A stretch of DNA of 56,236 nt, filler included, from Bipalium vagum (Eukaryota): the NCBI GenBank assembly GCA_037834085.1. It is 3 parts of 3 records of this genome, joined end to end, with 100 filler letters (N's around TTAATTAATTAA, not from the genome) between each part and the next. Parts side by side here need not be neighbours in the genome. Positions count along the whole stretch, not along the records: positions 38,734 to 56,236 come from JBBMKC010057783.1; 2 more parts are not named here. One strand, given 5' to 3'. Below the pieces are notes generated by a model. The model did not search any database, had not been told where the DNA came from, and was given only the letters and a program-made list of their open reading frames with translations. A program made the translations under genes and the position numbers. Below are positions 12,704 to 56,236 of this stretch, one piece after another (within the stretch, counting starts at the first letter, position 1; each line of letters begins with the position of its first letter).

Positions 12704-13711
12704 CTAAGAAGTGGTATTGTTCGAATTGTCTTTGGGGAGGCTTTTCAAGCCGGTTATGCGCTGTTTCCGACTTGACTTCCGCTTGATTACCGCGTACAAA
12801 TAAGCGATAAAATTCATTATGGAGTCCAAAGAGGACAGAATGTTAACGATATCGGCCAAGTTTTCCACTATATAACGATACTCCGTCAGTTCTCTGTACA
12901 TACTGATATAGTAGATTATGTAGCAAATGCTTTTCGGTATTTCACAGAGCGTGAAAATAACGCAGAGCATCAGAATGGTTTTCGTCGGCGACGGAGCTCT
13001 CAACTGGTGGACATCCAGGAACTGTTCATTTCTCTTTCGAACCTCATTAATCAGGAACACGCTGTAAAACAGGATAATAAATGTCGGCAGCAATCCGAGC
13101 ATGAAGGAATAAAAGGGAATAAAGTAGTAATTGTAGCCCATATTCATTGACATTTGTTTTCTGAGGAACATCACATTTCCCGTTTTATTTTCTATATCTA
13201 TTTTCGAATCAAACATCTTCGGAATCGTCAATATGAACGCAATGAGAAGAATGACAATTAATCCGTACTTAACTCGCTTATTACCATAGGCCTGACTTCG
13301 TAACGGTTGACTGACCACCTGAAAACGCATCCAAGCTATGAAAGCAATCATCCAGTTTCGAAGAAAAAGAAAAACGCGATAAATATTGCGCAAACCATGA
13401 TGGATGAATTGAGCCCCTACCCATGCCAGAAACGAGTTTGAAACCTTCTTCTTCATGAGATAAGTAAAATAAAACCAGAGTTGAGTGATGAGAAAGGACA
13501 GCCCATAAATCGTTTCGATCAGAGACAAAACAAATAGAAGAAGGATGAAGTTCCCTTTGGTCTTGATGAACCGGAAATAAAAGGCCGAGAAAAGATTGAG
13601 GATAAATCCAATGAATACGATCACCAGGACTATCGACGTGAGATAGATCTGAGCAACACTGATGATTTTCGATGTCGTTTGGTTGCCTGGCGAAATGTCG
13701 CTGGTATTCAT
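12704..13711 (-). CDS. Class A (rhodopsin-like) 7TM GPCR, orphan FMRFamide-receptor/Srw-like type, 335 aa, intronless CDS
   Basis: Seven hydrophobic segments; N-terminal sequons (NTS, NQT); TM1 GxxxN; TM3 RNWxxxxIAxxRF..V..PL; TM5 LLP; TM6 CEIP; TM7 DSIMNFIAY; basic C-tail. Confidence 0.92.
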   Translation of the reverse strand: MNTSDISPGNQTTSKIISVAQIYLTSIVLVIVFIGFILNLFSAFYFRFIKTKGNFILLLFVLSLIETIYGLSFLITQLWFYFTYLMKKKVSNSFLAWVGAQFIHHGLRNIYRVFLFLRNWMIAFIAWMRFQVVSQPLRSQAYGNKRVKYGLIVILLIAFILTIPKMFDSKIDIENKTGNVMFLRKQMSMNMGYNYYFIPFYSFMLGLLPTFIILFYSVFLINEVRKRNEQFLDVHQLRAPSPTKTILMLCVIFTLCEIPKSICYIIYYISMYRELTEYRYIVENLADIVNILSSLDSIMNFIAYLYAVIKRKSSRKQRITGLKSLPKDNSNNTTS

Positions 13712-14449
13712 AATATTCTACTTAATAATGAAAGTCTCACCAGTGTCATTCCCATTTGCCTGCATGTCGAGGGGAAGTCTGACAACCAAACATTTTGTCA
13801 AATGAATTCCATTTATTTGGTGTAGAGCGTCGAAAATCTGATAAATAAAAAATAATCAATTTCTTCAATGAAAAAAAATCCAAAGACAATTCTGAATCTT
13901 TTGTCGTCGACAAATTCGGGGGCATAATAAAATATAATAAAAGAAGAAAAAGAAAAAAATTATTATTTTAATTCTGAAAGAAAAAATAAAAATCATTAAT
14001 CAATAATTAAACATTTTTTAAGATGAAAAGGAAAAAAACGATTATCAGGGTTTTAAAAAATAAAATATTATTAAAAATAAAAAAATAATGTGAAAAATTT
14101 TAATGATTTTTGAAGAAATATAATATATTTAAGATATTATTATTATTATTATTATTTATTAAATAAGAATAAATTAATGGAAAATACTGATTGATTGATT
14201 ATCAATTTTCTTAACCTCTCGGATGTACTTTCGTGTCACTAACATTTCGATCAAGTATATATACGAACCACGTGATCCGAATTTGCTGTTCCTCCCGTTC
14301 TGTCTTACTACTGTCAAAACCAAGCTCATGTTCCATATTAGTAGGTGAACAATCCAACGGTTTTCGAATTCTGAAATTTGCAATGATGGTAAGAAACATC
14401 TAATTTCATATAAAATAACATTCTCAGGCAAGAGCAGAAATACTTATGT

Positions 14450-26491: not shown

Positions 26492-28733
26492 TCAATCAAT
26501 ATCGCCACTTTGCACATTTCGATGGTCGCTGTCGTCGAAAGAGTATTTCATGTACCGTTGCAGCTCAGAATCGCAAAATTTATCAATACTGGGCCAAAGA
26601 GGCAAATGAAGTTGGTGAAGTTTCACATTGCTCCGCAACAAGCGTGATGAGTTACAATTGGATATATTCCCACTGTTTCCGTCTGTGCGTGCTTTATTGC
26701 CTGTGGAACCTGGATCAATAATAATAATTGTAATAATAAAACACTAAAATACAATATAATAATTATAATGTCAATAAAATAATTATAAATATGAAAAATT
26801 TTTATTTAATAATAATAATTAACAAAATAAAATAGATAATAATTGATTTTTTAATTAAGAAATTCAATTAATCAAAGATTGTATAGAAAAAATAAGGCAA
26901 CCCTTAGCGGAGGAGTCAGGCGGAGCGGACATGGTCAAAGAGTCTTTACTCATGCTGAGATGCATCATGATTTGTCGGGCGATAGGATTGGACTCGCGAC
27001 TGGTTATGTTGACGATCGATTTTTGCAACGACCACAGGGATCGTTTTGGAGGTCTGATGGAGAATTTTTTGTGAGTGAAATCGAATTTGTCAACAGCAAC
27101 GTCGATGAGTTCCGTTTTCGGTTCCCCTTTCATTTCGAAACACGTCCTGATCAATTCCAGGAGAAACGAGCAGGAGTTGCAGGAAGAGATGGAGAAAGAG
27201 CAATTATTAATTAATTATAATTATTAATAATGATATTAACAATTAATAACAATAAGAAATAATAATTTTAATAATTTACAATAATAATTATGATAATAAC
27301 AATAATCTCTAAAGTAATCAATAATAATGAAAATCAATAAAAATCTGAAATAATAAAAATCAAAAAATAATTGATAATTATTAAAAAGAATTATAATTTT
27401 TTCATGCGAAAAAGAAAATCAAATTTAATTAATTATTATCATTTGAAAAAATGAAACCTCAATTAAACGTTTGAGAAAAAAAATCAATATCACTGTCATC
27501 ATTCACTTACTTTATCAAACTGTGATCCAGTCGATCACTGATTGGCTGACTGTTTTCATTGACCGATGTGACCCCAAAATTATGATCAACGACTGATCGA
27601 TCGGAAGAACGCTTTCTCCATGACGACGAAGACGATTTACCACCACCACCACCACTACCACCGGAACCGATCATTTTTGTCTGTTTCTTCATCTGATGTA
27701 CGGCATGTTCGTCCGAAGAACCATTGCTCGTTGCACCAGTCGTCAATGACGTCGTCAAGTGCGAAGGGGTCACAACGGTCGGATTACCGGAACTCAAATG
27801 GCAAATTCGCAACTTGATCTTGGGAGAGCTCTCTACGATCGGTTGCGGAGCCGAATTCATGGTACAACCTGTTGCTGTCGGTGGCGTAACCAAGTTCGTG
27901 ATTGCTGGCTGTATCGTTGTCAAGGTCGTAACAGTTCCACCTGGAACTGTTAATAAACTGGCAGTTCCAATGTGACCCGTTGACGAGTTTGTAGTTCCAC
28001 AGTGAACCGGGGTCACCGTTGCGTTCCCTGGTGTTGGACTAAGCTTGGAACCCGCATCACCGATAATCTGACGACGACTATTGTAATGACGAATCGTTGG
28101 GCGTCCAGACTTGCTCAAAGCGACGTTGAAAAGCGCTCCGATTCGATTTTTTCCAAGTCCCGCAGCAGCAAACCAGGGACCGTCATAGTCAAGACTGACG
28201 CTCTTGTCCGGTTGCAAATAGAGCGGCGCCGATGGGTAACAGAAGTTTGAAGGTCGGTGGCTCAGGTAAGTTTCGAAGATCGTTAACGGACACTTGTCCT
28301 TTGCGTTGGGTGTCTCGTAAATGGTCTTGGGAACGAAGCGCGTGTTGAAAACGGCTCTGGACCCGTTGCTACTGGTTCCGGTTGGGTTTCCTGTGTTGTG
28401 ACTGTTGAATGAACGATTAAACAACATTTTCTTGATCGGACCTTCCTTGTCGACGATTATGTTTCCCAAGCATAACTTTGCGTGGTCGGTGCGACTGCTG
28501 ATGCCGAAATAGTGGGAAATGTAGAACCAAACAGACACTAAGATTTCTTCTGGTCCATAGTTGCCCATAGCTTTAGATTTCCATAAATTCTCGATTATTC
28601 CATCGCTGTACAGATTGTTCAGATCATCGTTTTGCATTTCGCATTGAATTTGAGAGGAAATGTTTGATGTTGTTACAATTATTAATTGACTGTCGTCCGC
28701 GTCTTCACTATCTGAATTGTCGTCTGATTTCAT
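26492..28733 (-). CDS. Crypton-derived DUF3504-domain protein (QRICH1/ZMYM2-4/KIAA1958-type domain), ~561 aa; exons 28733-27511, 27146-26902, 26709-26492
   Basis: DUF3504-like motifs: LW...MG...PEEIL.SVWFY...YFG....DH..L, CPL.IF..YLSHRP, PLYLQP, WF....LGKNRIG. The ORF-track 'stop' lies inside a perfect GTAAGT donor at 27510. Both introns are GT-AG with matching phases (2 and 1) and give one open 1686-nt frame. The second donor (GTTGCC) is weak. The frame is also open 15 codons upstream of the ATG up to a TAG acceptor, so an upstream exon is possible. Confidence 0.82.
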
Positions 28734-30184
28734 GCTGGAAATATGTCCAGATATTTTGGCGTTACTTATTTCAGGCCACTAAGGGGTAGTTAAATATAAA
28801 AGCGAAATGAAATTAAATTTTCAGTTTAATGACCAAGTTTAATAATTCTATTTCAAAAATGCACCAATTTTAAACAAATGTTTATCCCAAAACGTCGGCG
28901 TAAAAATTAGAGTTCGTATAATTAAAAATAATAATTAATATCTAAGATCGAAATCTAAGATTTAGAATTATTCAAAAATATTAAAAAGTATTAGTAAATA
29001 ATTTTTAAAATTTAATCAAATTCTACATAAAATTTTTTAATAAAGTAATTCATTTTATTTTTTATTCATAAAAATGTTTTTAATCTTTCATAAAAAGTTT
29101 ATATTTATAATTAAAGCTACAAATGTTAAGTGATTACGTAATTAAATTTCATTTACGTTCCCTAGTGCAAACAAATATATTTTGCCGAAAAATAATAAAA
29201 TTATCACTATCATAAGACAACCAACCAGCCTTGAAATAGGTAATTAAATGCTTTATGATTTTTATTTATAACAGGTTATTCTAGCTCTTATTGATTTTTA
29301 TATAGTTTTTTTTACCCTAAAGTAAAAATCCATAATAATAAACTATCGATGAAAAAATAAATTAATAATTAATAATCATTATAAATTTTTAAAGGCACAT
29401 AATTTCCTGTGTTGATTGATTTCATATTCAATTAAATTTGAAAATAACTAATATACTGACTTCCAAAATAGTTAAATTTTTTAAAAAAGGGCTTAAAATA
29501 TCGTTATTTTTCATCGATTGTGCTTTTTATTATCTTTTCTATTAATCTGGGATAATTAGTTTAGTAAGATAGGAAGTAGAAAAGTGTATTTGTGTTTTGA
29601 CCGTGGTGAGTTTGAAAAAATTACTGACATGTTTAATTTTTCTGTTGGAAAGAAATAAATTTTATTATGTAATCATGTAAGTTTTTGCCGATAAATCAAT
29701 GAGTGGACCTAATCACAATTACTGAATGAGTCAGATTGGGTTTGGTTTATATTGTATTAGCAAGTTGTTGCAATGTCAATTCCTTTAATAAATAAAACTG
29801 GGAAGTCATTTAAAAATATTTCAAAATAAAAATAATCAATGAATATGTGAAGATCGTGTCCAGGTGAAATACAACGAGGAGCATAAAAAACAATGGTGCA
29901 TTTATCTAACTCTATTTTTTGTTTCAAAAATTTAATTAAATTTTTTATGTATGTGTTATATACGAGATACCAATGACTTATATTTTGGTGATCCAATTAT
30001 TATCTTTTTTGTAATATTTGTGGTGATCGTGTCTGAGCTGCAGCTAGATGAGGTCCTTCCTAGAGACAAAGATTCATGCATGTAAAAAAATTGATTTTAG
30101 ATAATTTGATTTTAATTTATATTTTATTTAACATTATATTATTTCTGGTAAAAAGAAACTTATTTATTTTGTGATTAAATAATT

Positions 30185-38733: not shown

Positions 38734-38987
38734 ACGTTAACTATCGTAAAATTGGTCAAGCTCTTTTTTATCATATGTCCCAAAACAAGAGTAACTTCGT
38801 TTCGTGGAGAGATGTGGCTCAAAATATTTTTAATGAAAAATACCATTATAACAAGAAAATGAAAAGATGCTACGGAAATGGGTTGTGCGAAAATTTTCTT
38901 AGTGTAAATAATTTTTAATAAATAAAATCGGTTGTGGTTATCATGAGCAAAAAAGGCAAGGGGTTTCCAATTTAAAACACAGACCAA
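38734..38987 (-). mobile_element. Possible hAT (DUF4371-like) transposase remnant
   Basis: LAFFAHD resembles LAFRGHD, and SHISPRNEV..LGHMIKK resembles YxSPxIQNE. Confidence 0.35.
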
Positions 38988-39329
38988 TTCTACTATTATA
39001 TTAAAAAGTAGAATCCATATTCAAGGTAACATTACCAATATCAGTCTTTGATAATGGATAATGAAAGCCTTTGATGCTCATGATCATTTTTTTATATTTC
39101 CTGAAATAAAAATCATTTTTCTCAAAGGCCGGATTCGACCAGGCGAGCTCGGTGGGCTGCGGCAAGGCGCAGTGTTTTGGAGATGTCTATGGGAAAAACT
39201 ATTCTACCTTATATTACTGTAATTTTTATCCAATGTAAGAATATTTGATTTAATTAATCCAATTGAATATTTGATTTAATTAAACCTAAATGCTTAAAAA
39301 ATTTAACAATGCTCATGGAAATGAAATTG

Positions 39330-39676
39330 GTGGATCTTGAACGTTCTGTGTTGTTATTGCTGTTATGGGTCGACCACCGATAGGTCTGACTGCAAAGTCG
39401 CCAGTTCTTTGAATCGTTTAACAACATTGTACGCATTTCTTTGTTTGAATCCATTTGTGCGAACTATGTCGGCAGTCTTCATTCCAGCCTTGTGCAACTC
39501 ACAGATGGTCATGCGTTCGTGTTCACGGTTCATAACTAATTAATCTAAAGACATTCAAACAAATTAAAAAGTTGTATCAGATCAACGTTTTTCGAAGAAA
39601 TCAAAACTGTAAATCGCTTAAACAAAAATTTAAAAATCAATGAAAATAAAATTGCAACAACTTTTTGGCCACCCTG
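39330..39676 (-). mobile_element. 5' end of a Tc1/mariner-superfamily element (TIR plus HTH)
   Basis: CAGGGTGGCCAAAAAG end at 39676-39661; ATG 39533 MNREHERMTICELHKAGMKTADIVR...YNVVKRFKE, frameshift, then RPIGGRPITAIT. Confidence 0.7.
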
Positions 39677-41779
39677 CATATCTTACATATACAATGCGAC
39701 TTTTATTTTGGGCCACAATATTTCAAAAGTGGTCCAATATTAGAAGTTAAGACATAAAAAGGCTATGAAACGTGCTTATATGAACTTATGGATGTAATAA
39801 TAGAAATTAAAAGATTCTTTATTGCAAAGTTGCTTGGCAATATTATATTTATCTTCATATGATAATTTTTTTACTCATTCCTGATTTTGAAAATGTTATA
39901 CACGAAAATATTATTAAAACAAATTATTAAATTTTTAAACAAATTATTGACATTTTTGGACCAAGAATTTTATTTCTTATATGAAAATATCGAGAAATAT
40001 GATAAGTACAAATTATTGGTCCAAATATGGAGTTCGGTTTGATTATAGAAGTGTTTCATTTCAGAAATTGGTCCAAATTGCACTGTAGCTTAATGACAGT
40101 AAAACTGTTATTAATTGTTTCCGATTTTGGAGGTAGGGCTAAGTCGAAAAACTAAGATCATTCAAATGTATTATAAAACCCTATCTTTTTAATATTCTTT
40201 TCATTCTGATTTTATTGGACACATTCTATTTTTATTATTGATCTGAGGAAGTAATGATAATTCTGATGTTATTTATACAGATAATACCTTTTTCTTTATA
40301 TTGTTACCACCAATCTACAGCTATCAACCCCAACAATAATTAGCATTTATGTAATGGTATATAATTTTTATCAGGAAGCCTGAAAACGTCCCAGTTTTCA
40401 TTGATAGCAGTACTAGCAAATGTCATGAGTGTTATATTCTCCAGCCAGATAAAAGGTTCAAATGCGATAAAAGTCGCCTATGCGGTAATTAAAATTTCAA
40501 GAAAGGTTTATATTTTATCTTTGTTTTATTTTAGAACATTGTACCTTCAACGAGCCGGGATGTATTGGACTTGGTATTCGTAATTTTTCTATGATATATA
40601 ATGTCTTTCAATTTATGTAGAAGACCTAAGAATTCTGACTAATATTGGAATTCCTTGTCCCTATAATACTACCACTTACGACATAAAGGTTGGTCTTTGT
40701 GATGCTGCCAAATCCGGCATCCCAATGTCATCGGAGCTTATACAATTCTTGAATAGAAGAAAAGGGTGATTTGTTTTAAAATCACACCATTTTTAAATTT
40801 GTAATTTAGAGTCTGAAGTCTGGGAAACATTTAGTCTGAAAAAGAAATTGTTCCTAATAAAATAATTACTATAACTTGCTAATCTTTCTTTTTATTCATT
40901 TCAAGATTTAAACAAAAAAATAAAACTACCAATTTTTGTTTGATTAATTAAGATTTTAAAAAACATATTCCGTAGGTTTGAGATGATTGGTTGACTGAAT
41001 TTTACATAAGGATATACACAAGAGTAAATATATATGAACATCAAAAGTTACTGAATTAAGAGTTGAAAAAATATTTTTAAAAATGGTATTTTAAGCAATT
41101 AAACTTCATTTATTTTTGAGGATTACCTTGAGCTCGGCAGGTCTTTTGTCGTTGTGAATATTTAAACATATTGTAGAATTTTAAAAGTTTTATAAAGTGC
41201 TCAATATTTAAAATGTGTTTTATTACATTTTAAAATCTTTATAATAAAGGCACATTATATTAATTTATTGATTTTGTGAAATTTGTTTAAATATTATTTC
41301 TCTTTATGAATGAAACTGTCTCAATTTGTTGAAATCACAGCTAACAGTCGTCAAATATTAGTTTCATTTTTTTGTTTAATCATTTAATGTACAAAAAGGG
41401 GTATCATTTTATCGTTGTATTTAATATTACACAAAAACCAATATTTCTGAAAATTATTAATGATTCTTCTCATTGATTATAATCAATAATAATTATCAAT
41501 ACTTTCCTGAGCTCATAAATTTCAGCTATCTTACTAGAAATCGGTTTTCTTCTGTGACTATAATTGAGAAATGAATCGAAACATCGCTTCAGAACCTAAG
41601 TACTCGAAAAGATTATTGATACCAAATTCAGGGTAGTGAGTTCACGGTTGTATAGATTTTTTCTTGATAAACGGATATTTAATGTTTGCAAAGTTGAAGG
41701 GACACTATCTAAAGACCTATTTTTCTTATATGACTACATCTGATCTTATTATTAGTAAAAACTATTCGGAAACTTTGGA

Positions 41780-42010
41780 AAATAAATAATGAAATCCTTC
41801 GGCAACCGTACAACACCCAGACTTAGTTTCGACATATTTTCGTGATATTGATGGTCTATCGAATCTTTCGGCCTTAAAATACTTCCGAGAGATGGGAAAA
41901 AGTTATGATAGATTAATCTATTTTTATTAAAAAAATATATATGCTTTAAAGTAAACCTTCACAAATTATGAGAAAAGCCTGTGATAACCAGTCGAAAGGA
42001 TCACTATTGC
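41780..42010 (+). mobile_element. Highly decayed mariner C-terminal fragment
   Basis: EILRQP...PDLVSTYF resembles E.L.HPPYSPDLAPSDF. Confidence 0.35.
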
Positions 42011-42772
42011 GACAATTCGAAGAATATACTTAAAAGAAATGGAAATTAAAAATTTTAAACCAAAATAAGAAAAAAGATCTATATTATATTTTATTCAAGC
42101 ATGAACAATTCATTTCTAAAAAGATTTGATTGTAAAGGTCTTACAATATAAAGAATTAAATAAATTGGAAAGGAAAGAATTAAAGAAATGTTTGAAAAAA
42201 TTAACGAAACGCAACTAATATTAAAGGAAAAATTTCAATCCTTGGTCTTTAACTGAACAATTAAAATAAACGGGGTTGGTTTTCAGTAAATAGTTAATTA
42301 TTTACCATTTTTTTATGAATGACCTTCCACTCTTGAACTAATGTTTTAATTTTACATTTTTAGTCTCACCTAAGAGATTTACTGATAAAGTATGAGTCAA
42401 TGAGGCTTCTAATGGACTCCGCTTCATTAAAAGTATTGCTTTCAACGAATTATATCAATGACATAACAATTAAACAAATGAGATACGGATGCGTCAAGCC
42501 CGCTGAGTACAAAGACCATGAAAGCATGCCACCAAACGATCAATAATTTATTCTGAGTGACAAGAAATTTGTTTTTCTTTAAAACTAAACATGTTTATGA
42601 TAAATATATCTTCAAAAAAATATATGAAGGTCATAAAAACTTTTTATTGGTGTGATTAAAATAAATTTTAATGAATACAATAGTTAAACCAGGAAAATAA
42701 TAAAAAAATACAAAATCGTTTCTAATTTAAGCTCAGAAAACTTAAAGAATTATATAAACGGCAAATGATATC

Positions 42773-44762
42773 CTAATGGGTCAGGGTTTTACAAACGAGT
42801 GTGAGGAGCAAGGTTGATTCTTCGTCCTCGCTGGACGTGGAATGTTCTGTCAACGAAAACAACTGGGACATTTCGTGATTGTTGCTATTGATATAAAAGT
42901 CGTTGATGGTATCCATTTCGGAATGGAAAAGAGTTGTTTTCATGGATTCGGGGTTCGATGGATTTTCTGTGCCATAAGTACTGGAAGGTTGCATATTTGA
43001 TGTCGAATCGATGGTTTTCATCATTAATTCATTACTGACCGTTAAACTGTTTAAGTTGAGATTGAAAAGATCCGAATTCCTGGACAATATATTGATCGGA
43101 TCACAATTAATTTTTTCATTTGTTCTGGGCGATTGTGATTGGTTCTTCGAATTGAAATTCAAATCCTTGAATTTCGAAAGGAAATTAGAAACATTCGATT
43201 CTTCATTGTCCGAATCGTCATCTTTATCGTCACTGTCTTCTTCCTGCTCCTCACTATTTGTTTTGTTAAGCTTTTCAGTCGGCTTGAAGTTGTATTCCTC
43301 TCCTTCTGCCGATGCATCGGATTCTTTCTGAATTTCTCCAACCAAACTTGTCTGCAGTAATTTGGTATCAATCGAAACCTCTTCATAATCTTTGGCCAGC
43401 ATTGCCAAGTTGTACAGAGCCTCACAAAATTCGCTTTCTTCCAAACCCTCTGACACGAACCAATGTACAAAACTCCGTTTTGCGTACAGCCGGTGGAATT
43501 TCTGGGCCAGCCTTTGCCAAATGATGCTGATGGAAGAGGAATTTGTCATCATCACCACGCTGCTCTTTGTGTCCCCCATGTAGCTGTCCGGTAAAATAAG
43601 AGGGGGCTTATTCACAATTCCGACTTTAAATCCTGTGGGACACCAGTCTACGAAGTTGTATCGACGACTTGACTTTATTTCCGATAATGTGGAAAAGACC
43701 TCACAAGCGTTCACCAGGCCCCGATACACCAGTGAACAACTTAAATATTTCCCACTGAACGGATCACATTTCACCAATTGGTGGTTGATTTCAAACACAG
43801 ATTTGGTGATTTCGGCCAGACTGTTTTCGTCTCGGTCCATCTTGAACTCGTTTCCCAAAGGAGCAAAACTGACGAGAGGAAAATGTATTCTTGGATAAGG
43901 CACGAGATTTGTCAGAATTGCCTTAATGTCATTGAACATATCACTGCTGAATCTCGAGGATGCTGTTATACCACTATTGACTTGAGCGAAGATTCTGTTG
44001 ATTGTTGTCATTGTGGGCTGCTTCACAAACAAAATGTTGCATGAAATGTCAAACAATGCTTCGTTATCAAGTATTAGCCCAATATCACATTCCTCCATAC
44101 AAAAATGCTCTCCCAATATACTATTATACGGGCCGACGACACAGCTATCGAAATGAGGTGAAGGATGAATGGGTAGCTCAAATGTTAAAATCTTCATGTA
44201 CTCCTCCAATATTTCAAAAATTATGGGTGTAAGACCGGATCCGGAACCACCAGCCAGCGACCTGTAAAACAAAATCGAGTTTACCAAATCACACGATTCA
44301 ATCTCTTTTCTCAAATGACTTTCAATCGTTTGATACAGCAATCGACCTATTGTGTTAAATGCTCGAGAAAAATTTCCCGAACTATCGTCCATGCCATTAA
44401 TCAATTGGAAAGGATGGTAAAGGTTTCTATATGACCCTGTTCTTAATTGGTCTAGAAATATCCAACAATTAACTATTTTAATATTACATTACAATTACTA
44501 AGAACAGTTGGCTCCAGATCAATGAAAAGACCCCTAGGCACAAATTGTCCACAATGGGATTCTGAGAAAAACGTTTCAAATAATCTGTCACTTCCGTGTA
44601 TTCCGTCACTCATCTTTCCGCTCCTATCAATTCCGTGCTCGGCACATAACAATTCCCAATTTGAAAAGCCTATCTGGTTACCGGCTTGTCCGATGTGAAG
44701 AGATAAAATCTCTTTCTGAAAATAAATGTTTTCACATAAAAACCTTCAATCAGTATTACCAT
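42773..44762 (-). CDS. Highly divergent alpha-tubulin-like protein with long C-terminal extension, 632 aa; exons 44762-44760, 44715-44499, 44451-42773
   Basis: M|KEILSLHIGQAGNQIG, WEL.CAEHGI, VPR..FIDLEPTV, AGGSGSG, DNEA, TNLVPYPRIHFPL, FVDWCPTGFKVGI, YAKR.FVHW, DYEEV. ATG-only first exon, as in many animal alpha-tubulins. GT-AG introns of 44 and 47 bp; uninterrupted 1899-nt frame. Confidence 0.93.
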
Positions 44763-44989
44763 TCCTTTCAAATTCAAATTATTGATTAGATTGAAAATCA
44801 ATAAAAAGTTAATTAATAATTAATAATTTCTATTTCCTATTTTCTACAAGCTTTTCTATCAAGATATAATTGAATTTGTAGAAATTATTATTTCTTTTAA
44901 TGAGAATAGATTTTCAGCACAACCTATGTATAAGATTGGATGAAAGTTCTACAGCTTTTCATTATATTTATGTATTTTTGAGTATTTCA

Positions 44990-45190
44990 AGGACTTGAGA
45001 ACTTGTTTCGAAGCAATCCACTCATTTTACCAGTTTTTGTCATCATAATTCTTGAAGCTCTGGTCAGACAGACTAAGGTCTATCGACTGATCATGTCATG
45101 GTTAGATTTATCAATATTTGGTGAGTACAGTGGATTGGGTAAAACCTCCAATACAATCTTTAGCATTTCTATGATAGGTTTAGCAACTTA
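44990..45190 (-). mobile_element. Mariner C-terminal remnant
   Basis: VAKPIIEML...EVLPNPLYSPNI, LSDQSFKNYDD and WIASK. Confidence 0.65.
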
Positions 45191-46399
45191 GTACTCACAG
45201 TATGTATATCTAACGAGATTTATAAAAATAATTTTAAAAACCTACTAAGAAATCATAAATATATTTATTTTATTATTTTTATCACAAATAATCCTCCACA
45301 GAGTTTCAGGAGATTTTGGAAATAAAGTTAAACATTTCTTTGGTATTTTCATAGTTAGGAAAAAGAAAATTCGGTATGATAGAATTATGGACCTCAAAGT
45401 CATCTGTGGAGACTGCGAAAGAACTAAAAATTTTTGTGATTAAAACATTTTTGCAAAAAAATTAGACAATTTGTGAGATTAATTAATAAAGCATCTTTTT
45501 ATTTGTTATGTTTAGTTTTTATTTATTTTCATATTCACGTAAAATAAAAATCTCTGAGAAATTATCCTAAATGTTTATATTATTATTATTATTATTATTA
45601 TTAATATCATTATTATTATTATAAATTAAATTATTTCAAAAAATAAATTAAATGTGTAATTTAAAAATGGATAAGCTGACTTACTAAACATATAATTCAT
45701 AGTTAAAATAATTAAAAAAGGAATAAAAAAATAGGTAAAAGTTTAAATTGGAACAACATAGTTTTAAAAATAGTATGAGTCTGAGTTTGAAAAATATTTA
45801 AGGTCAGCATAAGATTGACGAAAGGCACAAAAAATTAGCTTCATCAAGCTTAAAAAATTTAAGGTCAATAAGCACCAAACATATTCAGACAGATAACAGA
45901 GTCAGATTTTACAAGCATAAACAAAAATTGGACGCTATAAATTGTAAAATATTTACATTCCAAGAACATCCTGTGTAACGCGGAGTACATAAGCTCAATC
46001 ACAAGTATTCTAGGGACTCATTGCAAAATCAAGTTTCAGTGTCATAAGAAAATTTGGTTAATTTTATTATCATTACTATTATCATCTCTTTTGATATTAA
46101 ATTGCACAAGATATATATATATTGGATAAAAGTCAAAAAAACTTTTTAATTCTAAAAAATTTAAAAATATCATTTTTAAATATCTAAAATTTTTTTTTAA
46201 AATTATTTTTTAAAAATAATTATTTTTTAAAAATATTAATTAAGGAAAACATTAATCATCTATTGATTTCTGCTTTCTCCATTTTGTGAATTAATTTCTG
46301 GTTTATTAAGAATCAGTAAATAAAATATATAAAAAATATACATCAAAATCAGTCAATCCAATAATCACTAGTCCTTAGCATTCAGAATTTTCCTTTTTT

Positions 46400-47050
46400 A
46401 TTCCCATCTTTTTTCTCCTTTTGTTTACACAGCGGTTAGGCTGGTAAATTGTCTCAGGGACTTTCCACAGCTTACAAGGCAACTGTGAAAGGAATTCCAG
46501 AGATTCTTATTAACCTTATTTGTAATAATTACTTTTAGTTTTTACCAATAAACGTATTTATCATTAATCGATATGTTCTCAATTTGCTTTTATTGTGTAG
46601 TTTTCTGTTATTTTGTCCCCATTAGTTTCGAATTAAACTCTATAAAACCTTCTGATAGCAAATATTTTGTTGAGTTACCTAACGTCCCAATTCGATATTC
46701 TTAATCCAGATATTCTTACTCCAGATTTTTTGTAATAACGTGTTCAGTTCTATGAATAAGCGCTGTGACATGATTATTAAGAATAAGGTGGGACAAATAA
46801 TTATTAAGAACAAAATGTTGTTACTAATTGTTTGTCTGTTTAACATAAATATATTCGTACCGATATTTTTTGTGTCACATATTTTCAAACTTTTCTAGTA
46901 ATTATGCTTATATTTGTAAAACAAACTATTTTCATCCTCTTGTTGTTTTTAAATATGCAGCATACTTAGAAACAATGGCCTATATATCTCTAACAATAAT
47001 ATTCTAACGATTTTTTCTTTAAATGTTATTTTATTATTTGCATTATAATC
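46400..47050 (-). mobile_element. Decayed Penelope-like RT fragment
   Basis: In order: V.DI.AIV (YVDD-like), EDENS, Y.KQTN (YRKPT-like), ALIHR; homologous to 17790-18040. Confidence 0.5.
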
Positions 47051-47269
47051 GTATGGATAATTATTGGAGTAAGTGCATATAGGTAATTTAAACAAAGGGG
47101 CCCAAATGATATTATCATACCAAAAATTCAGTTTAAATTATGAAAAGTATAATAAGTTATGTAAATTTTAAATTTTCACCGTAAAACAGAAATCATAAAA
47201 ATGAATTGTAGAGTTATAAAATAATAAATTATAATTAATCAAATCCTGCCATCTTTGAATTAATGTTAT

Positions 47270-47660
47270 ATAAGTGATTTCCTGTTAAAAAATGTCTCGC
47301 TGAGCTTTTAATGAGCTTCTCGACCCTGAAAGTTTTCCCGTTCAAGGAATTCTGTAGCGGCTAAAAATGAAAATTATAACGTAAGTAAAAATTTCTATAC
47401 ATGGAAAAGATTTCCAAACCTTAATATCAATTTTCTTATGATCAATGATATGAGGCCAGATAACATCGTTTTTGTATACATTGTCCAAAGGATTTACTTA
47501 TTACGAGTGCTTTTTGAGTACTATATTGTTCAATGTTATTTTAACGAGTATCATCATTTTCTAGATGTGCAATCCTGCTTTTCTGACGTCTTCCAATGTT
47601 ATAATCTTTTAAGAACCACATTTCAGTGAACAACTCATTTTTCATTCTTCGTTACCAATT
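47270..47660 (-). mobile_element. Internally deleted mariner catalytic-domain remnant
   Basis: LVTKNEK*V..NV (VTGDEKW-like), KAGLH, .PHI and LQNSLNGKTF. Confidence 0.6.
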
Positions 47661-47899
47661 TTTTCAAAAACGTGTGTTTTTATATTGGTTTATACTACAT
47701 GTTGAAATACGTTCCAATAAATTAGCCCTTGTTAAACTAATGCTTTTTAACTTCATTTAATTTTAAAATATTTTCTTCTTCTTCACCAACACATCTCTAT
47801 AGGACTATGCAAATCTTAAGGTGCGGCTAAGATTATGAAACATTTTATATAATTCAGTTGCTGATAGTTAATCAGCAGGTTTATTGTCTGAAGTGTTGT

Positions 47900-48900
47900 A
47901 AGTATTAATAGTGCCCCTTTAATCTTATCCGTCCACATATTTGATACACTCAAAGTACTATAATACACTCAATAATTGTTATTTCTATTAAGGTTGGCGA
48001 TTTCTCCTTGATATCCTGAGATTGCCGGGGGATTTAATATGAAATCCCTTGATATTGCTCATGGAACTTTAATATTTTGTTCTTAATTTGACTTACATTA
48101 CGTGTTTTACACTGGAGAGCTTTATTATATGCGTACAAAGTTTCAGTACGTTTTATAAATTAATGTCAATACTAAGAAAGAAGAAAATTTATTTACTAAA
48201 AATGTTTTTGTTTCGCATTCAATAAATATGTTTTGAGAAAAAATACCTGATTCGATTATACGATTAGTAAATTTTGTTATTTTTAAAAATTTTTAAGCTA
48301 AAAATCAATTACATAAAAAGGTTAAGAAATAATAAGAAAATAGAAAAGTAAGAATGAGAAATAAAAAATAAATTATTTAACACATAACCGAAAGGGGTCT
48401 GCAGAAAAAGTGAAACAGTTTTTCTTTTTTGAAAGTATTTTCCTATAGAAATGGCAAGTGCTACACCACGAAAGACAGTATGAACACCACAGAAATTATT
48501 AGTATCTTTACGGGATCTGATAAATCTGTTTTATAAGCCCACCACTACTAGGACATACCACTGGAACACTTTCCTCTTGGGAGTTCTGTTTAATCTTTGT
48601 TTGGAAGACACCTAATTTCAGAGGACTGAGTCGAATCCATTCATTTTGGTTTCTTTTAATTGACATTTTAACAGCTGCAATATTTCTTTTACACCACACA
48701 TTTCTTGGTCTTCTTGGAGTTGCAACATTCATAAGTCAATGTATTTGCTCAAAGTTTTGCACCAGACATTTCTCTGTTCTTCTAATCAGTTGACAGCCAA
48801 AATTGGTTTTAATACGCTTTTATTTTTTTTTCATTGAACGGGTACTTTGGTAATAAATTTGAATTATTTGAAATTATTGTTCATTTGTAAATTGATGCAC
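47900..48900 (-). mobile_element. Fragmented DUF4817/rosa-like transposase (N-terminus 48900-48590, C-terminal trace ~48040-47900)
   Basis: HQFTNEQ*FQIIQIYYQSTRS, RPRNV....NIAAVKMSI..N.N..IR....LG, then EIA.L near the end. Confidence 0.6.
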
Positions 48901-49767
48901 ATTCAAAACGGTGAACATTAATAAATATATAAACGAAATGTTAAAACAAATGAAATTAAATAAAAGTTTATATTCAAAATAGAAAATGCGTCTTCCTTAA
49001 TGAAAAACTCTTAATAATATCCATATTACTTGTTATTATTATATTATTATTTAATATATAATTTTTTTTATAAAAGTAATTTTATATATTTATTTTAATT
49101 TAGTTATCATTATTTTTTATTTATTTATGATTAAAAAAATTAATTAACTTAATCAAAAAAATTTATAACAATAAAATGTAAATGTTTTTATGAGTAATAA
49201 AAGTTTTGATTTGATTGCTAATCTGAAACCAACTAGATGAATTTGCTAATTGAACAGAGGAATTTTTGATATTGATTTTTTGATTAAATTGTTGATTACT
49301 GATAACTAAAATTATTTCTTTTCCCTCTTTGACTCTGACTACCACATAAACAAAGGGAATTGACAAGGATTCCTCAAAACTCGAATTAGCAAGCATTCTA
49401 AAAAAGTAGATTAAGAAAAGTATATAATAACTTAGCTAGTTATAAAGAAAAAAGGAAAAAATGCTAAGAAAATGAAGTAAATAAAAAAATCTCAATAAAC
49501 ATTGTGTGATATAAAATACAACCGTATCTTTAATTAAAAAATCGGTTCTCATCGTGTTCAAATTCAAAAATCTTTTATTGATTCAAGAGAAATTGGTAAA
49601 AACGATTAAGGAATAAATAATAATATAGAAAAAAATTTCGTTTCAATAAAAAAATAATTTATACTATTCAAAAAACTTAAAATATTAAAATAAAAAATAA
49701 TGCATCTGTTTTGAAAAAAGTTTGCATTTAAAAAAAGCCTCCTTCAAATTTTTATATGTATAGTATA

Positions 49768-50690
49768 CGAGGGTGGGTTGAAAAGTTCAGTGATACAATA
49801 AAATCGAAACATAAACAAATTTATTTTTCAATGTTGCCTCCTACAAGCTGATCAAACTTTATTAAAGGTTTCTCAAAATCTCACTATTTGACGAAAATCT
49901 TTGTCCATCGAGAATTTTCTTCAGGTTTCTGACGGGGCCAGATTTGGAGAATTAGATGGGTGTGGAATTAATTAATTAAGTGCAACTTTTTAAATTTTTC
50001 CCTTGAAAATTTACATGTGTGAGCAGGTGCATATCAAGGTTGAAAAAATTTGTTTACTCGACAGACCTGGACATTTCTCACGAATATGCTGTAACAGCTT
50101 ATCAAGTTGGTTTGCGTAATATAACACAGTTATCGTCTTATCTTTTTCAAGGCAGCCCATAAAAATAATACCTTTAGTAACCCAAAATACGGTAGCCAGA
50201 ATTTTTCCTGACGAGTGAACCGTTTTCGCCTTCTTGGTCGCTGGTTCATCCTTTGCTGTTCATTGCGTTGATTGAATTTTTGTTTTCGGCGGATAATAAT
50301 GAAGCCGGATTTTGACCACAGTGATAAATTGATTGAAGAAATCTGGATGATGTCGTAAAAGCTGCAAACACTGCTCTGAAGTTGCCACACGATGTTTTTT
50401 TGATGTGGCGTTATCACACACGGTACCCATCTTGCACACAGCTTTTTCATACTAAATTCTTCATGCAAGATGTGATGAACACGCTATTTCGAGATGCCTG
50501 TAGCTTCAGCAATCTGAATCAATTTTAATCTACGGTCTGTCAACACGATTTCTTGAATATTTTCCACCATTTCCTCGGAGGTTGCTGTTTTTAGTCTACC
50601 AGATCGTGGTGCCTCTTTAATGCTCACACCACCCTGATTAAATTGGCAACCAACTCGTAAACGTTTTTAATGAGGGTGAAAATTCAACCT
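49768..50690 (-). mobile_element. 5'-truncated mariner element with right TIR
   Basis: TA-CGAGGGTGGGTTGAAAAGTTC terminus at 49768; PRSGR, HEEFSMKKLCARWVP and PHPSNSPNLAPSE motifs. Confidence 0.85.
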
Positions 50691-50756
50691 TCACATACGT
50701 GTGGACTGATCTGACCACTGAGCTACATTCCCAGACTAATTTTCAATTTATCTCAC
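50688..50756 (-). repeat. Truncated second copy of the tRNA-derived repeat
   Basis: GGGAATGTAGCTCAGTGGTCAGATCAGTC...GTGAAGG plus the same upstream flank (GAGATAAATTGAAAATTA) as the 52967-53062 copy. Confidence 0.7.
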
Positions 50757-51169
50757 AGCAATGAATAAAGAAAGTGTATGTTAACTTAAAAGTATTTTGT
50801 TGTTGATTATTTGTATTGTTAATTTAAAAGTGCCCGTAAAAACAATTTTTGCCCGTCATAGTAATTTAGAATGTACTCTTTGGTACTAAAAGATTGGGCA
50901 CCATTGGTCTACACAGTCCTACACTGTTTTACACGATGTAAATGGGAAAATGCTATTTCATTTTCAATATAGTCCAGGCTTAGCTAGATTTTTATTATTT
51001 CGAGAAATAATATAAAAGGAGTCGGTTTAGATTGTTTTCCCTTTTCAAATATGGCTCATTTCTAAACCGTTACACTTTTACAATACAGTTTTAAAAGATG
51101 AAAATAATTAGAGCCCTTAGAGTGGAATGGTGTTCATATAGAATAATGTAAGGGTACCCTGTTAGTTTT

Positions 51170-51370
51170 CAAGTAAATATTTGGTACCATTTTATTTATA
51201 TGAGCATTTATAATATTTTTATTTTTTAAAATAATTTTCGTTGTTTTATTCATTTTATATTGGATAAATCAAGTGATAAACATGAACCTAGGACTTTGAA
51301 ACGTCACCTAATATCTAGGAAAATAATGATAACAGATCTTCATATTTGCAGATGACTCTAGCTTATGATT
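51170..51370 (+). mobile_element. Possible RTE-type LINE reverse-transcriptase remnant
   Basis: ITDL/IFADDSSL (FADD motif) with one frameshift. Confidence 0.4.
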
Positions 51371-52852
51371 ATGAGTTTAAAGTTAAAGTAAGATTTTTAA
51401 AAATTTTATTTAAAATGAAAAATTATAACAAAAAAGTTTAAAGTACTTTTCCTTCTTTCAACTTGGATATATAGGGTTGCTATTTTCGATTTACATTCAT
51501 CCCTATAATGAGATTAAATGAGGTTATTATTATGGTGGAATATAAAAAATAATCGAAGAAAGTAAGAATATCAAAACAATAAAAGAAAAGCCATAGAAAG
51601 TCTCGATGTAATAATCAATAGGTGGTTTCAGTAGAAGCATGTTTTACTATCCGCAGGTGATCCCATGAGTAGTAAACGAAAACAGAGAAGATATCCCTTA
51701 TCAAAATTACTTTACCGAAAGATTCAAGAAATCTGTTCGATCTGTTGATACAGTACTTACCAGAGCTGGATCATTACTTCTTCTCTGCCTCAATGAAATT
51801 GGATTTATCAGTTTTAATTAACTTTATTACTGTCTCTTCTCAGAATGAGTTAATCTAGAGAGAAGAAAGTTGTGCGATTTCTGAATAGATATTACATTTT
51901 ATCAACATAATCTTCATATCTCCAATCAATTATATATATCCTAAATATTTGTGTCAGATAGTAATAATAAAGGGCCTACTGACAACATATAATCCACCCC
52001 TCTAATAATAATATTATTATTATACTCAATTTCAATAACCCACCATTAAAACATTACAACTGAAACATTGAGATTATCAAATATATTTGATCGAATTGCA
52101 CTAAATAAATATATTTATATGGAAAGAATCTAGAGATGTCACGAGCTGATGTGGGTTGTATTCTCACAAAATACTTTCCCACCGAACCTTTGTAAAAATA
52201 TTCAAATATAATATAGATCAAAAGAAGAGATAAAAGACAAATCTTAAGAATTTTATAGAGGATCTCGATTTCTATCTAGTGCGCCTTACAACGGGACGCA
52301 TGACTAAATGTTGTCATGGTCTGTCATTTGATATCTCTTGTGGAAACAACTTGTCAATGAAGATACATTATAACGATAATTTCATTAATGTTGTCCTGTA
52401 AAAAATACCGATCTGTTTTATTACGTTTATCAATTTACATTTATATTTGCCAAAAAATAAATAAAATGAAATTCTTTCAGATTTTATCACTGTAATTATT
52501 CTTCAAGAGTAAAATTTCAAATAATAAAGGGAAAAATGAATTGTGAAAATATAAGTTGAAGCATAAATATAATTTTGTTTTAATTTTTACATTTTTTAAT
52601 ATTTTCAAAATTATATTTTTTAAAATAGAGAGTTGGATATATCAATAATTTCTGGGACTAAAAATGAATCTAAAAAATTTTTTTAAAAAATTTCCCCCAA
52701 AATATTATTTTTTAAAAATACAAAAATAATTTTTTTTCATTAAAATCGTATTTTAATACTAACACAAGAACGACGAATTATATTTATTATTATATTGAGT
52801 TAAAGCATCCATAATAGTTTCAAAACTGAAAGGAAACAATATAGATTGTCTA

Positions 52853-53427
52853 TTAGGTTGTCAAAAGTGTTTAAATGTTTGCCATTCATTTTATTTTCTA
52901 AAATCAGGTATCAATTAGTTTATCTGAATAATAAATATTAATTATATATTAATGGGAAGATTAATAGAAGATACCGGGATTCGAACCCGGAACCCTTCAC
53001 AAGAATAAAGACTGCTCTGACCGCTGAGCTACATCCACCGATTAATTTTCAATTTATCTCGCATCCCCCCCTTTAGAGCTCACATCCATATCCTTAACCG
53101 TCCCGAGTCTCTTACTTCCATTTCTTTCACATTCCTTTACTTTTCGACATTCTAGAACTTGTCCGCTGGTTGGTGTCCTGGTGTGGTCACAATGTTAATC
53201 TGTTCAGTATTATCGAGAAGAAATTCCATAATAAAAAAAATATATCTAAAAACCCAATCTTTTGTTCCTGTGCTGATTATTTAAACAATAATCATTCATA
53301 AATTTAATTATTTCCTTTACATAGTACTGTCCTTTTCAAAATTCTGCTGCCAAATAAATTATGTTGATTAATTCAAACAAAAATATTTTTCCAGTTTAAT
53401 AACGACATTAATTTTTTGACAACCTAA
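52853..53427. mobile_element. Mariner-type non-autonomous element (MITE), 575 bp
   Basis: TA-TTAGGTTGTCAAAA (52851-52866) and TTTTGACAACCTAA-TA (53414-53429): 14-bp perfect TIR with TA flanks. Confidence 0.75.
52967..53038 (-). pseudogene. tRNA-Ala-like pseudogene / tRNA-derived repeat, 72 nt
   Basis: GTGGATG-TA-GCTC-AGCGGTCA-GAGC...CCGGG-TTCGAAT-CCCGG-TATCTTC. D and T arms and A/B boxes are intact and the acceptor stem mostly pairs, but the anticodon stem does not pair. Confidence 0.75.
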
Positions 53428-55553
53428 TATTAGATTCCAGCCATTCAATACAATTTTACTTTAATAGAATCTTTCTATGTCTGAAGTACTATTTTGGAAT
53501 ATCTGAAAAATTATAAAATTTTAAAGCCAAAATGTTTCGAAAATTTTTTATCAAATATATTAAAGTAATTTTCAAAAAAAATTTAAAGAAAAATTGGTTT
53601 TTAAAAAATGCATCAAAAATATAGTTCATATTTATAAAATTAAAAAGGACCATAATATTATCTAATAATAATATATTATTATTAGATCTAGGAAATTATC
53701 TGCTAAATAAAATAATATAAATAAATTTATGTAAAATATAAAATTATTAAAATTTAATAAAATTCCTACTTATTTTTATGAAAATTTTTTAAAATTAATA
53801 CAAAAACTATTAGTAAAAATAAATGCACATATAAATTATAACGTCGCGGAATTAGTGGGAAAAAAGTTAAAGAATATTAATTTAATGAAAATGACGAAGG
53901 TATATATTGAGGTGATCATTGTATCATCTGGAATCGTTCATAATACTTTAGAATTTGATATTATAATGGGTCGTCGAAATAAATCCGGAACATTTTCAAA
54001 GTTATATGAAAAGGAAATCATTATAATCATTATAATTGTTTTTGTTTAAATAAACTAATTTATCAATAAAATAGATTAGCTAAACTTGAATTATTTAATA
54101 TTAATTTTGGATTAAGAATAGAAACGAAGAACGGCATTATTGTAGTCACTTTGAACCGGAATAAAGTCAAAAGAAATAATTCAATGGTTTATCAGTTGGT
54201 CAAAAGGTTTATTGAGACAAAGGACACAGTAAACGCCAAAATAAAATGTCACAATATATGATCTGACCGCAAAAGAAATGATAGAAAGCAGATAGGACAA
54301 GATAATGCCACCTCAATTTTCCAATTTGATCTCAAAGTGGATGACATATATCGTTGTGTTAGATAAGGTTGTAAAACCGTGGATGAACGAAATAATTAGT
54401 AGGTGACAATATTTTTTTCAGCAAGACTCTGATCTTACCCATAAACCTAGGTAAAAATAAGCATTGCTTTACGGAAATCTACCATACGTTGATCATCCGA
54501 TTTATATTCACCTCAGAGATTTGACTGTATCCTCTCTATTATTACCTATGGGGTGTAGTTGAGTCATAAGTTAATCAAAAACCTGCTAATTTTTATTGTA
54601 ATAAAATTAATAGTTTTTTATATGCACGTCCTTTTATTAAGATTATAGATTTTCTGGATTTATCTCCACGAAAATCTATAATTAATCTCTATTTTAAAAT
54701 ATTTTATACCTTTAAGTGATTTTACAATTTTTCATGTTTCTAATCATAGTTTGAAGGGGTCTTCGATGTCGTTGAAGCTTATGGGATTGATACAGTGAAA
54801 ATGGCATTCAAAAATATGAAGGTTTGGTTGTAAATGATCTTAACAATTTTACTATTCTTTTAAAAGATGGCAAAAAAGAAAATGAAAAAGAATGGATTTG
54901 AGTCGCCCAGTTGTTTAATGATCTTAACGGATGTTGATTTGCTTATTAAAAATAAAGAGACAAATGTAAAATATGTTTAAATCATGAAATCATTGACCAA
55001 CTTTCAGAAAGTTCTATTCAGCTGTAAGATAAACAACATCTCTTATGTTATGAGCAGTTTGTGCAGCAGCGTTTATATAGGAATCATTGTTAGCTACAGG
55101 GGTGAAGATAGCTACATCAGCAAATGCATAATACTGAAGTCTCAGTACAGGAAATCCAACCACATCGTATCAACAATCAGGGATAATTTGATGGTAAATA
55201 CTTTTAAATACATTTTTTGTTTTTTATATTATTAATATAAAATATAATATAATAATAATAATTAATAATAATAACTTATAATTTTTTTATAATGCAACTG
55301 GCCATAATTAAGAAGTTTTGCGAAAATATAATGTAGCATGTCATACAAAGAGCCCAGAGTTGCAAGGTTGCCAGAGGCGATCGTTTGAATGACATCTTTT
55401 TGAATTGTAAATGTTTGTACCGTCTGTATTTACATAAAATTATAAATTGAATTACTGAGCTTTTTAATTTATTTGTAGGGAGCAAAAACGAATGAAAGTA
55501 ATAAAGGTTCTTTTTATGGACGAATGATAAGTACACACCTGTTTAAATACATA

Positions 55554-56236
55554 CTGGGTGTTCAAGTTAAACGTTCATAAATAAAAGCGTAATATTTTTT
55601 ATGCTGTAAAGTTTTATTTAAAATAAATTTATTTGATCGAATAACCTTTATTGGGGATTTAGTAAATCCTACTTTATATATAAACTTATGTTGTTTAAAT
55701 GCATAAATAATGACAATAAATAAATGTACGTGTTTAAAATTAAATTAAATTTTTTGATATGTCTTACATATTATCAAAATCGGATAAAATTAGGCTGGTA
55801 GAGCTATTTTTTAAAACTGAGAGTTTCGCTGAAACTCAGAGAATATTTTCAACCGAAAAAAAATAAAACGAAAGAGTGACACGTCTTCAATACAGCAAAT
55901 AAGAAAAGTTATTTTTAAATTCCAGCAAACTGGTTGCATTAATAAAGATCACAATGTGCGATCTCCTAGAGCTTCAGAATAGAAAAGAAAGGATATTGAT
56001 ACTGTTTTACACCAGATGAAAGCAGAGGGAACATCTACGAGCATAAGGAAACTGATTTCTGCTTCAGGTTCCTCTATTGGATTAGTTCACACGTATCTCA
56101 GACGTGAATTGAAATTATTTCCCTATAAAGTTACAATTGGACAGTCTCTCTCAGACAATCATAAGTCAAATCGTTATGCCTTTTGCAAACGGATGCTGTC
56201 AAATATATCCAAGGATGATACATTTTTATCCCGAAT
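55554..56236 (+). mobile_element. Left part of a Tc1/mariner-superfamily (DUF4817-type) element running off the window
   Basis: TA-CTGGGTGTTCAAG end; ATG 55759 MSYILSKSDKIRLVELFFKTESFAETQRIF, frameshift in an A-run, then KFQQTG, STSIRKL, LRRELKLFPYKV and RYAFC. Confidence 0.8.

Follow-up and report, generated by a model that had tools for sequence, protein, structure and literature searches.

The question raised by this Bipalium vagum locus is why the reading frame of a tubulin should run on for 200 codons beyond the end of the tubulin body, and what kind of tubulin carries such a tail. The window, by which we mean the whole stretch of DNA of 56,236 nucleotides (filler included), joins three parts; the analysis deals with positions 38734-56236, which are one piece from JBBMKC010057783.1. 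Labels of the form L### denote alpha- and beta-tubulin loci of the same genome and P#### denotes protein records. Statements credited to a paper by its PMC number refer to the sections of that paper that were covered.

Gene structure and assignment

The gene lies on the minus strand, where one frame is open from 44488 to the stop codon TAG (42773..42775). From GT-AG boundaries and the reading frame we infer two short introns, of 44 nt (44716..44759; GC 0.25) and of 47 nt (44452..44498; phase 1, at residue 76). Exon 1 would consist of the start codon ATG alone (44762-44760). Exon 2 (44499..44715) specifies the N-terminal part of the tubulin GTPase domain, as recognised by Pfam (PF00091, E 6.4e-15) and by tblastn against the paralogs; judged by eye, the K40 position is without lysine. 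The body continues in exon 3 to the end of helix H12 (43376..44451, with DYEEV at 43390-43376), and the predicted product is a tubulin of 632 residues with a computed mass of 71.5 kDa; a product stopping at an internal GEEY would have 51.9 kDa. GC is approximately 0.39 before the stop and 0.2 past it, and candidate polyadenylation signals, found by consensus match only, lie in 42643..42672 (ATTAAA 42672, AATAAA 42648). The stretch is contained in a single contig of read set X1 with zero differences, although X1 may be the source of the assembly and so is not independent. After splicing, residue 2 (44715-44713) would be Lys, not the Arg of the MREI/MREC autoregulation motif, and with Lys at this position the protein may escape tubulin autoregulation.

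Judged by its sequence, the gene product is an alpha-tubulin by descent. Pfam families PF00091 and PF03953 are both above cut-off, the predicted model matches microtubule chains with a TM-score of 0.75-0.78 over the target, and in trees that use beta as the outgroup, built without gamma-, delta- and epsilon-tubulins and without apicomplexan alpha3, the protein falls within the alpha sequences. The body shares 44% identity with a canonical paralog; with the closest relative, P0038, identity is 78% (253/326). The tubulin signature GGGTGSG is degenerate (AGGSGSG, 44234..44254), and AGGSGSG appears in the delta/epsilon-tubulin table in the covered part of PMC10056924. Delta-tubulin was therefore considered, by comparison with PDB chains; the best 60 of the 69 PDB matches at E<=1e-80 are all alpha chains, at ~44% identity, which speaks against that assignment. 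Canonical alpha-tubulins of the TUBA1 type (L018-L022) have the same fold, domain order, H11-H12 face and intron at residue 76; unlike the 632-aa tubulin, they possess Glu254, GGGTGSG, Lys40 and a free terminal EEY 15-16 residues past H12.

No other recognisable gene was found in 38734-56236. A broken mariner-type transposase occupies 50011-50666 (PF01359, E 2e-16 at 50014-50259), and a possible second transposase remnant, with no Pfam match, lies at 39254-39539, near 39300. Other parts of the window hold an intronless rhodopsin-family GPCR (7tm_1, Srw; 12707-13717) and an exon with DUF3504 (27510-28778).

The tail as coding sequence

The initial annotation described 200 codons past DYEEV in which GEEY (43303-43292) is followed by 172 residues comprising an acidic block, low-complexity sequence, a second acidic patch and a hydrophobic end, and all of these motifs were recovered at the same places. 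The acidic block maps to 43196..43255. As regards a possible encoded mimic of polyglutamylation, another of the functions originally suggested, this block is much weaker in P0038 and the tails of several paralogs are basic. The block is followed by a Ser/Asn/Thr-rich linker (42836..43195), predicted to be disordered, and by a terminal module (42776..42835).

The tail is open in 0/20000 base shuffles, with 9 and 17 stops in the two alternative frames. It is homologous to the tail of P0038 (z 6.3, 0/500 shuffles), the middle taken alone being weakly conserved (z 2.1, 16/500 shuffles). We reject a recent stop-loss into the 3′ UTR on grounds of composition and homology. The tail could also be imagined to be untranslated, if splicing had gone unnoticed, if polyadenylation came early or if the assembly were wrong; this is extremely unlikely, since GC3 is coding-like (0.46 in the tail and 0.46 in the body, with a GC of 0.26 in the 3′ flank), the GC content falls past the stop, the tail contains no AT-rich GT-AG intron candidate of 25-89 nt, the P0038 tail is homologous, and each of the 16 paralog tails of at least 100 aa for which a flank could be measured exceeds its flank in GC. 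These observations support the view that the tail is real coding sequence, old, and retained in a relative, and by the same sequence measures it is very probably translated. P0055 is open through both intron positions and on into a 284-aa tail, and its sister P0053 starts with intron-like residues, which suggests that P0055 reflects a spliced transcript bearing a long tail.

AlphaFold2, applied to exon 3 with a 34-row alignment, gave a tubulin body, a helix at 369-384, a disordered tail, with pLDDT below 50, and at the very end a second helix, at 549-564 (pLDDT ~58). Pfam recognised no family in this tail, nor in those of 8 relatives with long tails. A built-in spacer or anchor, one of the functions originally suggested, is possible for a tail that is real coding sequence, kept in a relative and predicted to be disordered.

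The internal GEEY motif

GEEY (43292..43303) had been read as the normal alpha-tubulin terminus, left behind an ancestral stop-loss that was retained, and perhaps exposed later by proteolysis as an end for the tyrosination cycle or for CAP-Gly binding. We regard this history as very unlikely. GEEY is not at the canonical place: canonical paralogs ending in E(E/G)Y stop 13-17 residues past DYEEV and GEEY ends 28 residues past it, that is 11-15 beyond. Nor is the motif conserved. P0038 reads EGEAG at the aligned place, with AEY a few residues further on, GEEY is absent from the four other subclade members as well, and EE[YF] is present in 0/5 of these tails; the extension as such aligns with that of P0038. 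Among the 33 members of the clade described below, none ends in E[YF], and an internal EE[YF] occurs in two, the 632-aa tubulin and P0089. In the members from flukes, tapeworms and a monogenean the tail is short, of 4-15 aa after H12 in 10/11, and carries no EEY. Given these ends, a terminal EEY that could have become masked was probably already lacking in the clade ancestor.

In favour of the stop-loss, GEEY does follow H12 by 28 residues, and shuffled sequences seldom contain the exact motif: its frequency is 0.0005 for this tail, and one copy was seen across 35 long tails where shuffling predicts 0.094. EE[YF] is not rare by this measure, 3.2 being expected in the same 35 tails and 2 seen. 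A free C-terminal EEY/F, required of a ligand of the tyrosination cycle or of CAP-Gly domains, is absent, the EEY being 172 residues internal. With good confidence we take GEEY to be incidental.

The terminal module

The last residues of the tail form an acidic run (patch 42835-42815) followed by a 13-residue hydrophobic predicted helix (42814-42776), in a position matched in six relatives. An acidic run and then [ST]-[LI]-[ML]-x-x-L-[IVS], no more than 15 residues from the stop, is common to the 632-aa tubulin, P0038, L007, P0048, P0053 and P0055. Of all 11-mers in the tail, that of the terminal segment ranks first for hydrophobicity in the 632-aa tubulin and in 3/5 relatives, and second in a fourth. 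In leave-one-out scoring, four sequences lie beyond all 500 shuffles and P0038 is reached by 12/500; for the 632-aa tubulin 129/500 shuffles reach the score, with the best site still at the end, and a four-sequence profile is equalled by 468/1000 shuffles. Because of these weak results, what ties the 632-aa tubulin to the module is the placement of the segment and the link via P0038, and not the score of the protein itself. L011/L062 (580-aa tail), which belong to a different branch of the clade, have the pattern at their last residues (23/500 shuffles), the best of 35 untrained tails and the sole untrained match among 97 long tails screened. No new carriers of the motif were found in the best 150 of a profile search over 1.84 billion representatives.

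A tail-anchored membrane protein, with its hydrophobic span of ~18-20 residues, was rejected, only 13 residues following the acidic run and these including an internal Lys; a peripheral amphipathic helix may be present instead. An AKAP-type RIIa-binding helix was likewise rejected, the strict form of what we take to be the AKAP consensus being found in 0/7 tails. A relaxed form, generic for amphipathic helices, is found in 5/7. When the final 34 residues were modelled in complex with an RIIa-domain dimer from the same genome (alignments not used), the score was 0.03, which weighs neither for nor against binding. This genome contains 14 RIIa-domain matches above the Pfam cut-off, exceeding the few PKA regulatory subunits expected. 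A resemblance to the katanin-binding helix of CAMSAP3 may be considered, but the 632-aa tubulin fits it poorly. The terminal helix is likely to be a docking site for a protein or a membrane.

Residue 254 and the GTP site

The codon GCA at 43919..43921 places alanine at the position of the catalytic Glu254, a residue which triggers GTP hydrolysis on the neighbouring beta-tubulin and which, to our knowledge, is regarded as invariant. This was seen in alignment to the solved alpha-tubulins of PDB 7SJ9 and 7YSQ, and the top PDB sequence match, 7SJ9, is itself an engineered E254A chain (PMC8764682). Microtubules made with E254A nucleate both readily and strongly and are free of catastrophe (PMC7018511), those with E254Q are stable and hydrolysis-deficient (PMC11893814), and loss of Glu254 is lethal in yeast (cited in PMC7018511). 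Of the features of GAP competence, the 632-aa tubulin has Asp251; Glu254 (Ala) and GGGTGSG (AGGSGSG) are absent.

At the 18 positions that we take to form the N-site, the protein is identical at 8, versus 12-17 in most other divergent paralogs; P0038 is identical at 7, with four positions missing from this partial record. The M-loop, defined from a presumed set of positions in the same manner, keeps 5/17, and that of P0038 is mostly lost too. E183G and Y224M are common to both proteins. The outer H11-H12 face is kept at 10/14 positions, and the interface stretch WCPTGFK is kept.

A flatworm clade without Glu254

The 632-aa tubulin belongs to a clade of 33 sequences that includes flukes, tapeworms and the monogenean Protopolystoma, all named members being flatworms. 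Support is 0.999 in FastTree (98 rows, with four sequences skipped for a missing anchor, including P0048) and UFBoot 95 in IQ-TREE (41 rows), values which long branches may inflate; P0279 was placed by its 90% cluster and the rest by tree. None of the 33 has Glu at positions 252-255, and residue 254 is A, V, I, T or a deletion. In L007, P0048, P0053 and P0055 one residue is deleted from the T7 loop-H8 segment at the catalytic position. Among named non-flatworm matches, a set that leans to canonical proteins, Glu is present at 199/204 pattern sites, the other five being mis-hits or broken records.

The Fasciola hepatica member (A0A4E0RB94, D915_006002) has Val254 and keeps 16/18 N-site positions. 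Since other clade members keep most N-site positions but are without Glu254, the glutamate appears to have been lost before the N-site eroded. Neodermatan members are without the long tail, from which it follows that the long tail and the loss of Glu are separable.

The alpha-tubulin family of the genome

The exon-3 protein has at least 77 matches in its own genome, of which 63 were examined (52 alpha-like and 11 beta) and 14, mostly fragments, were left out; these counts may be too high owing to haplotype duplicates. At 37/52 alpha-like loci the tail extends more than 30 residues past H12, and overall tails span 3-580 aa and are mostly unalignable. Glu254 is kept at 21 of the 52 and absent from 31, where it is represented by Gln (15), Val (7), Ile (4, one via a deletion), Asp (2), and Ala, Thr and Ser (one each). 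Long tails accompany 28/31 Glu254-less loci versus 9/21 loci with Glu254 (Fisher test, p 0.0004), a figure that ignores kinship and is descriptive only, kin sharing both traits.

The Gln254 loci (L024, L025, L029-L034, L037-L040, L047, L049 and L050) have tails of 40-177 aa, and those that were scored form a separate group (FastTree 0.936), which suggests on the sequence evidence that Glu254 was lost at least twice. Two of them, L030 and L033, have tails of 42-43 aa ending in a strongly hydrophobic stretch that is possibly a membrane anchor. The tail of L029 has tandem Lys-Met-Ser-x-Asp units, and L062 (L062:1744-4626) has repeats of ~35 aa.

A long tail is usual in this alpha-tubulin family. 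L043 (533-aa tail), which keeps Glu254, aligns with P0126 (555-aa tail) at z 48 with many conserved tail motifs, although no Pfam family was found in either tail. The fluke and tapeworm records P0191, P0242 and P0250 have tails of 185-524 aa, and that of P0182 is likewise long. Neither the long tails across the family nor the Glu254-to-Ala change had been remarked upon in the initial annotation. A match to exon 2 within the flank is lacking at 8/16 loci (L007, L008, L009, L012, L013, L016, L029 and L062), for which longer introns, contig ends and N-terminally truncated genes are the alternatives.

Comparison with known systems

The nearest known case is alpha3 of Toxoplasma gondii (TGME49_231400) with its coccidian homologs, which like the 632-aa tubulin have no Glu254 and have an unusually long, poorly conserved tail (PMC10056924). 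It has been proposed, from sequence, for non-dynamic microtubules (PMC10056924). Alpha3 differs in being apicomplexan, with one gene per genome, a tail of ~40-48 aa and loss of Asp251 as well (PMC10056924), whereas here the gene is from an animal, the tail is of 200 aa with a predicted terminal helix, Asp251 is kept, and 31/52 loci are without Glu254. Loss of both Asp251 and Glu254, by which the coccidian alpha3 proteins are defined, is thus not found in the 632-aa tubulin, and the relation between the two is likely one of convergence.

The substitution is the same, at the same position, as that of engineered human E254A, and E254Q and E254D are matched by Gln and Asp at other loci of this genome. 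Engineered E254A, E254N, E254Q and E254D are single mutations in canonical tubulin (PMC7018511, PMC8764682, PMC11893814); the natural protein, by contrast, is 44% identical to the canonical paralog, with N-site and M-loop eroded.

D915_006002 and its fluke, tapeworm and monogenean relatives share the clade, the absence of Glu254 (Val or Thr) and the lack of a terminal EEY; they differ in their tails, which are of 4-15 aa except for one record with 43, and in an intact GGGTG signature. These relatives are annotated merely as "tubulin alpha chain." D915_006002 is listed separately from alpha-tub1 to 5 in a marker table (PMC11484910), and five Fasciola alpha isotypes with 72-95% identity have been described, residue 254 being unmentioned in the part covered (PMC3820024). 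A limited literature search, with subscription journals and bioRxiv supplements outside its coverage, found no prior description of a Glu254-less, long-tailed alpha-tubulin in flatworms. The kind is already known from sequence analysis, through Toxoplasma alpha3.

Proposed function and alternatives

D915_006002 is a testis marker (AUC 0.916; PMC11484910 supplement). However, 17/21 of the Fasciola alpha-tubulin marker rows among the matches listed there are testis (PMC11484910), and testis expression therefore does not single out the clade. Fluke sperm have 9+"1" axonemes and parallel cortical microtubules, according to published abstracts. By analogy with the Fasciola member, expression of the 632-aa tubulin in testis or sperm is probable, and its entry into microtubule lattices is somewhat favoured; once in a lattice, it would very likely be hydrolysis-dead. 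The cortical microtubules of sperm are unusually stable.

Our overall reading, to which we assign an even chance, is of a hydrolysis-incompetent, long-tailed isotype that stabilises sperm microtubules. The protein would dimerise with beta-tubulin and co-assemble into microtubules of the testis or spermatid; each copy would leave the adjoining beta-tubulin GTP-bound, and the lattice would be stabilised. The tail would project from the lattice as a flexible spacer, with the acidic-plus-hydrophobic helix as its constrained docking end, and the protein, with no free terminal EEY, would stand outside the tyrosination cycle. What we infer in this reading is testis expression, from the Fasciola member, dimerisation with incorporation, and stabilisation, from engineered E254A, a mutation that was tested in otherwise canonical human tubulin, from which the 632-aa tubulin differs at 56% of positions.

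The chief rival is a non-polymerising or capping pseudo-tubulin, in which the fold would serve as a scaffold that sequesters beta-tubulin, caps ends or templates a sperm structure, Glu254 having decayed as unneeded. The state of the N-site (8/18), the AGGSGSG signature, E183G and Y224M shared with P0038 and the M-loop (5/17), on the presumed position sets, are what such a protein might exhibit, as is the freedom with which residue 254 varies in the clade (A, V, I, T or deletion), and the eroded N-site and M-loop may leave the protein unable to polymerise. We nevertheless think this explanation unlikely: the Fasciola member, with 16/18 N-site positions and no Glu254, indicates that the loss of Glu preceded the erosion, the separate group of 15 Gln254 loci looks like selection on position 254, and the outer motor-binding face is retained. 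Relaxed selection in a large redundant family, with tails and Glu loss as tolerated drift without a dedicated role, has in its favour the number of alpha-like loci (at least 52), the mostly unalignable tails of 3-580 aa and the weakly conserved tail middle (z 2.1), and the same alternative was raised for Toxoplasma alpha3 (PMC10056924). It is quite improbable, given an intact frame of 632 codons, a body 78% identical to P0038, orthologous tails that persist between sources (L043 versus P0126, z 48) and a clade maintained in flukes, tapeworms and a monogenean.

Returning to the stabilising isotype, a wider and more doubtful proposal, offered as speculation, is that flatworms reserve a large set of genes for the alpha-tubulins of their sperm cortical microtubules, and that these proteins are naturally hydrolysis-dead, residue 254 being Ala, Val, Ile or Gln after at least two losses of Glu. 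Such a set would amount to a genetically encoded, permanent GTP lattice in which the long tails act as spacers and the terminal helix tethers to membrane or partner. The locus is then of interest less for its buried GEEY than for its terminal helix and residue 254. If the proposal is true, these proteins would be natural versions of the engineered E254A/Q mimics of the GTP cap, and the 632-aa tubulin would be a candidate component of the cortical microtubules that lie parallel to one another in flatworm sperm. The clade occurs in flukes and tapeworms and is strongly unlike host tubulin, which would bear on parasite fertility, and in an animal family where most of the alpha-tubulin genes examined are without Glu254 it would be the choice of isotype, rather than MAPs or modifications, that switches off dynamic instability.
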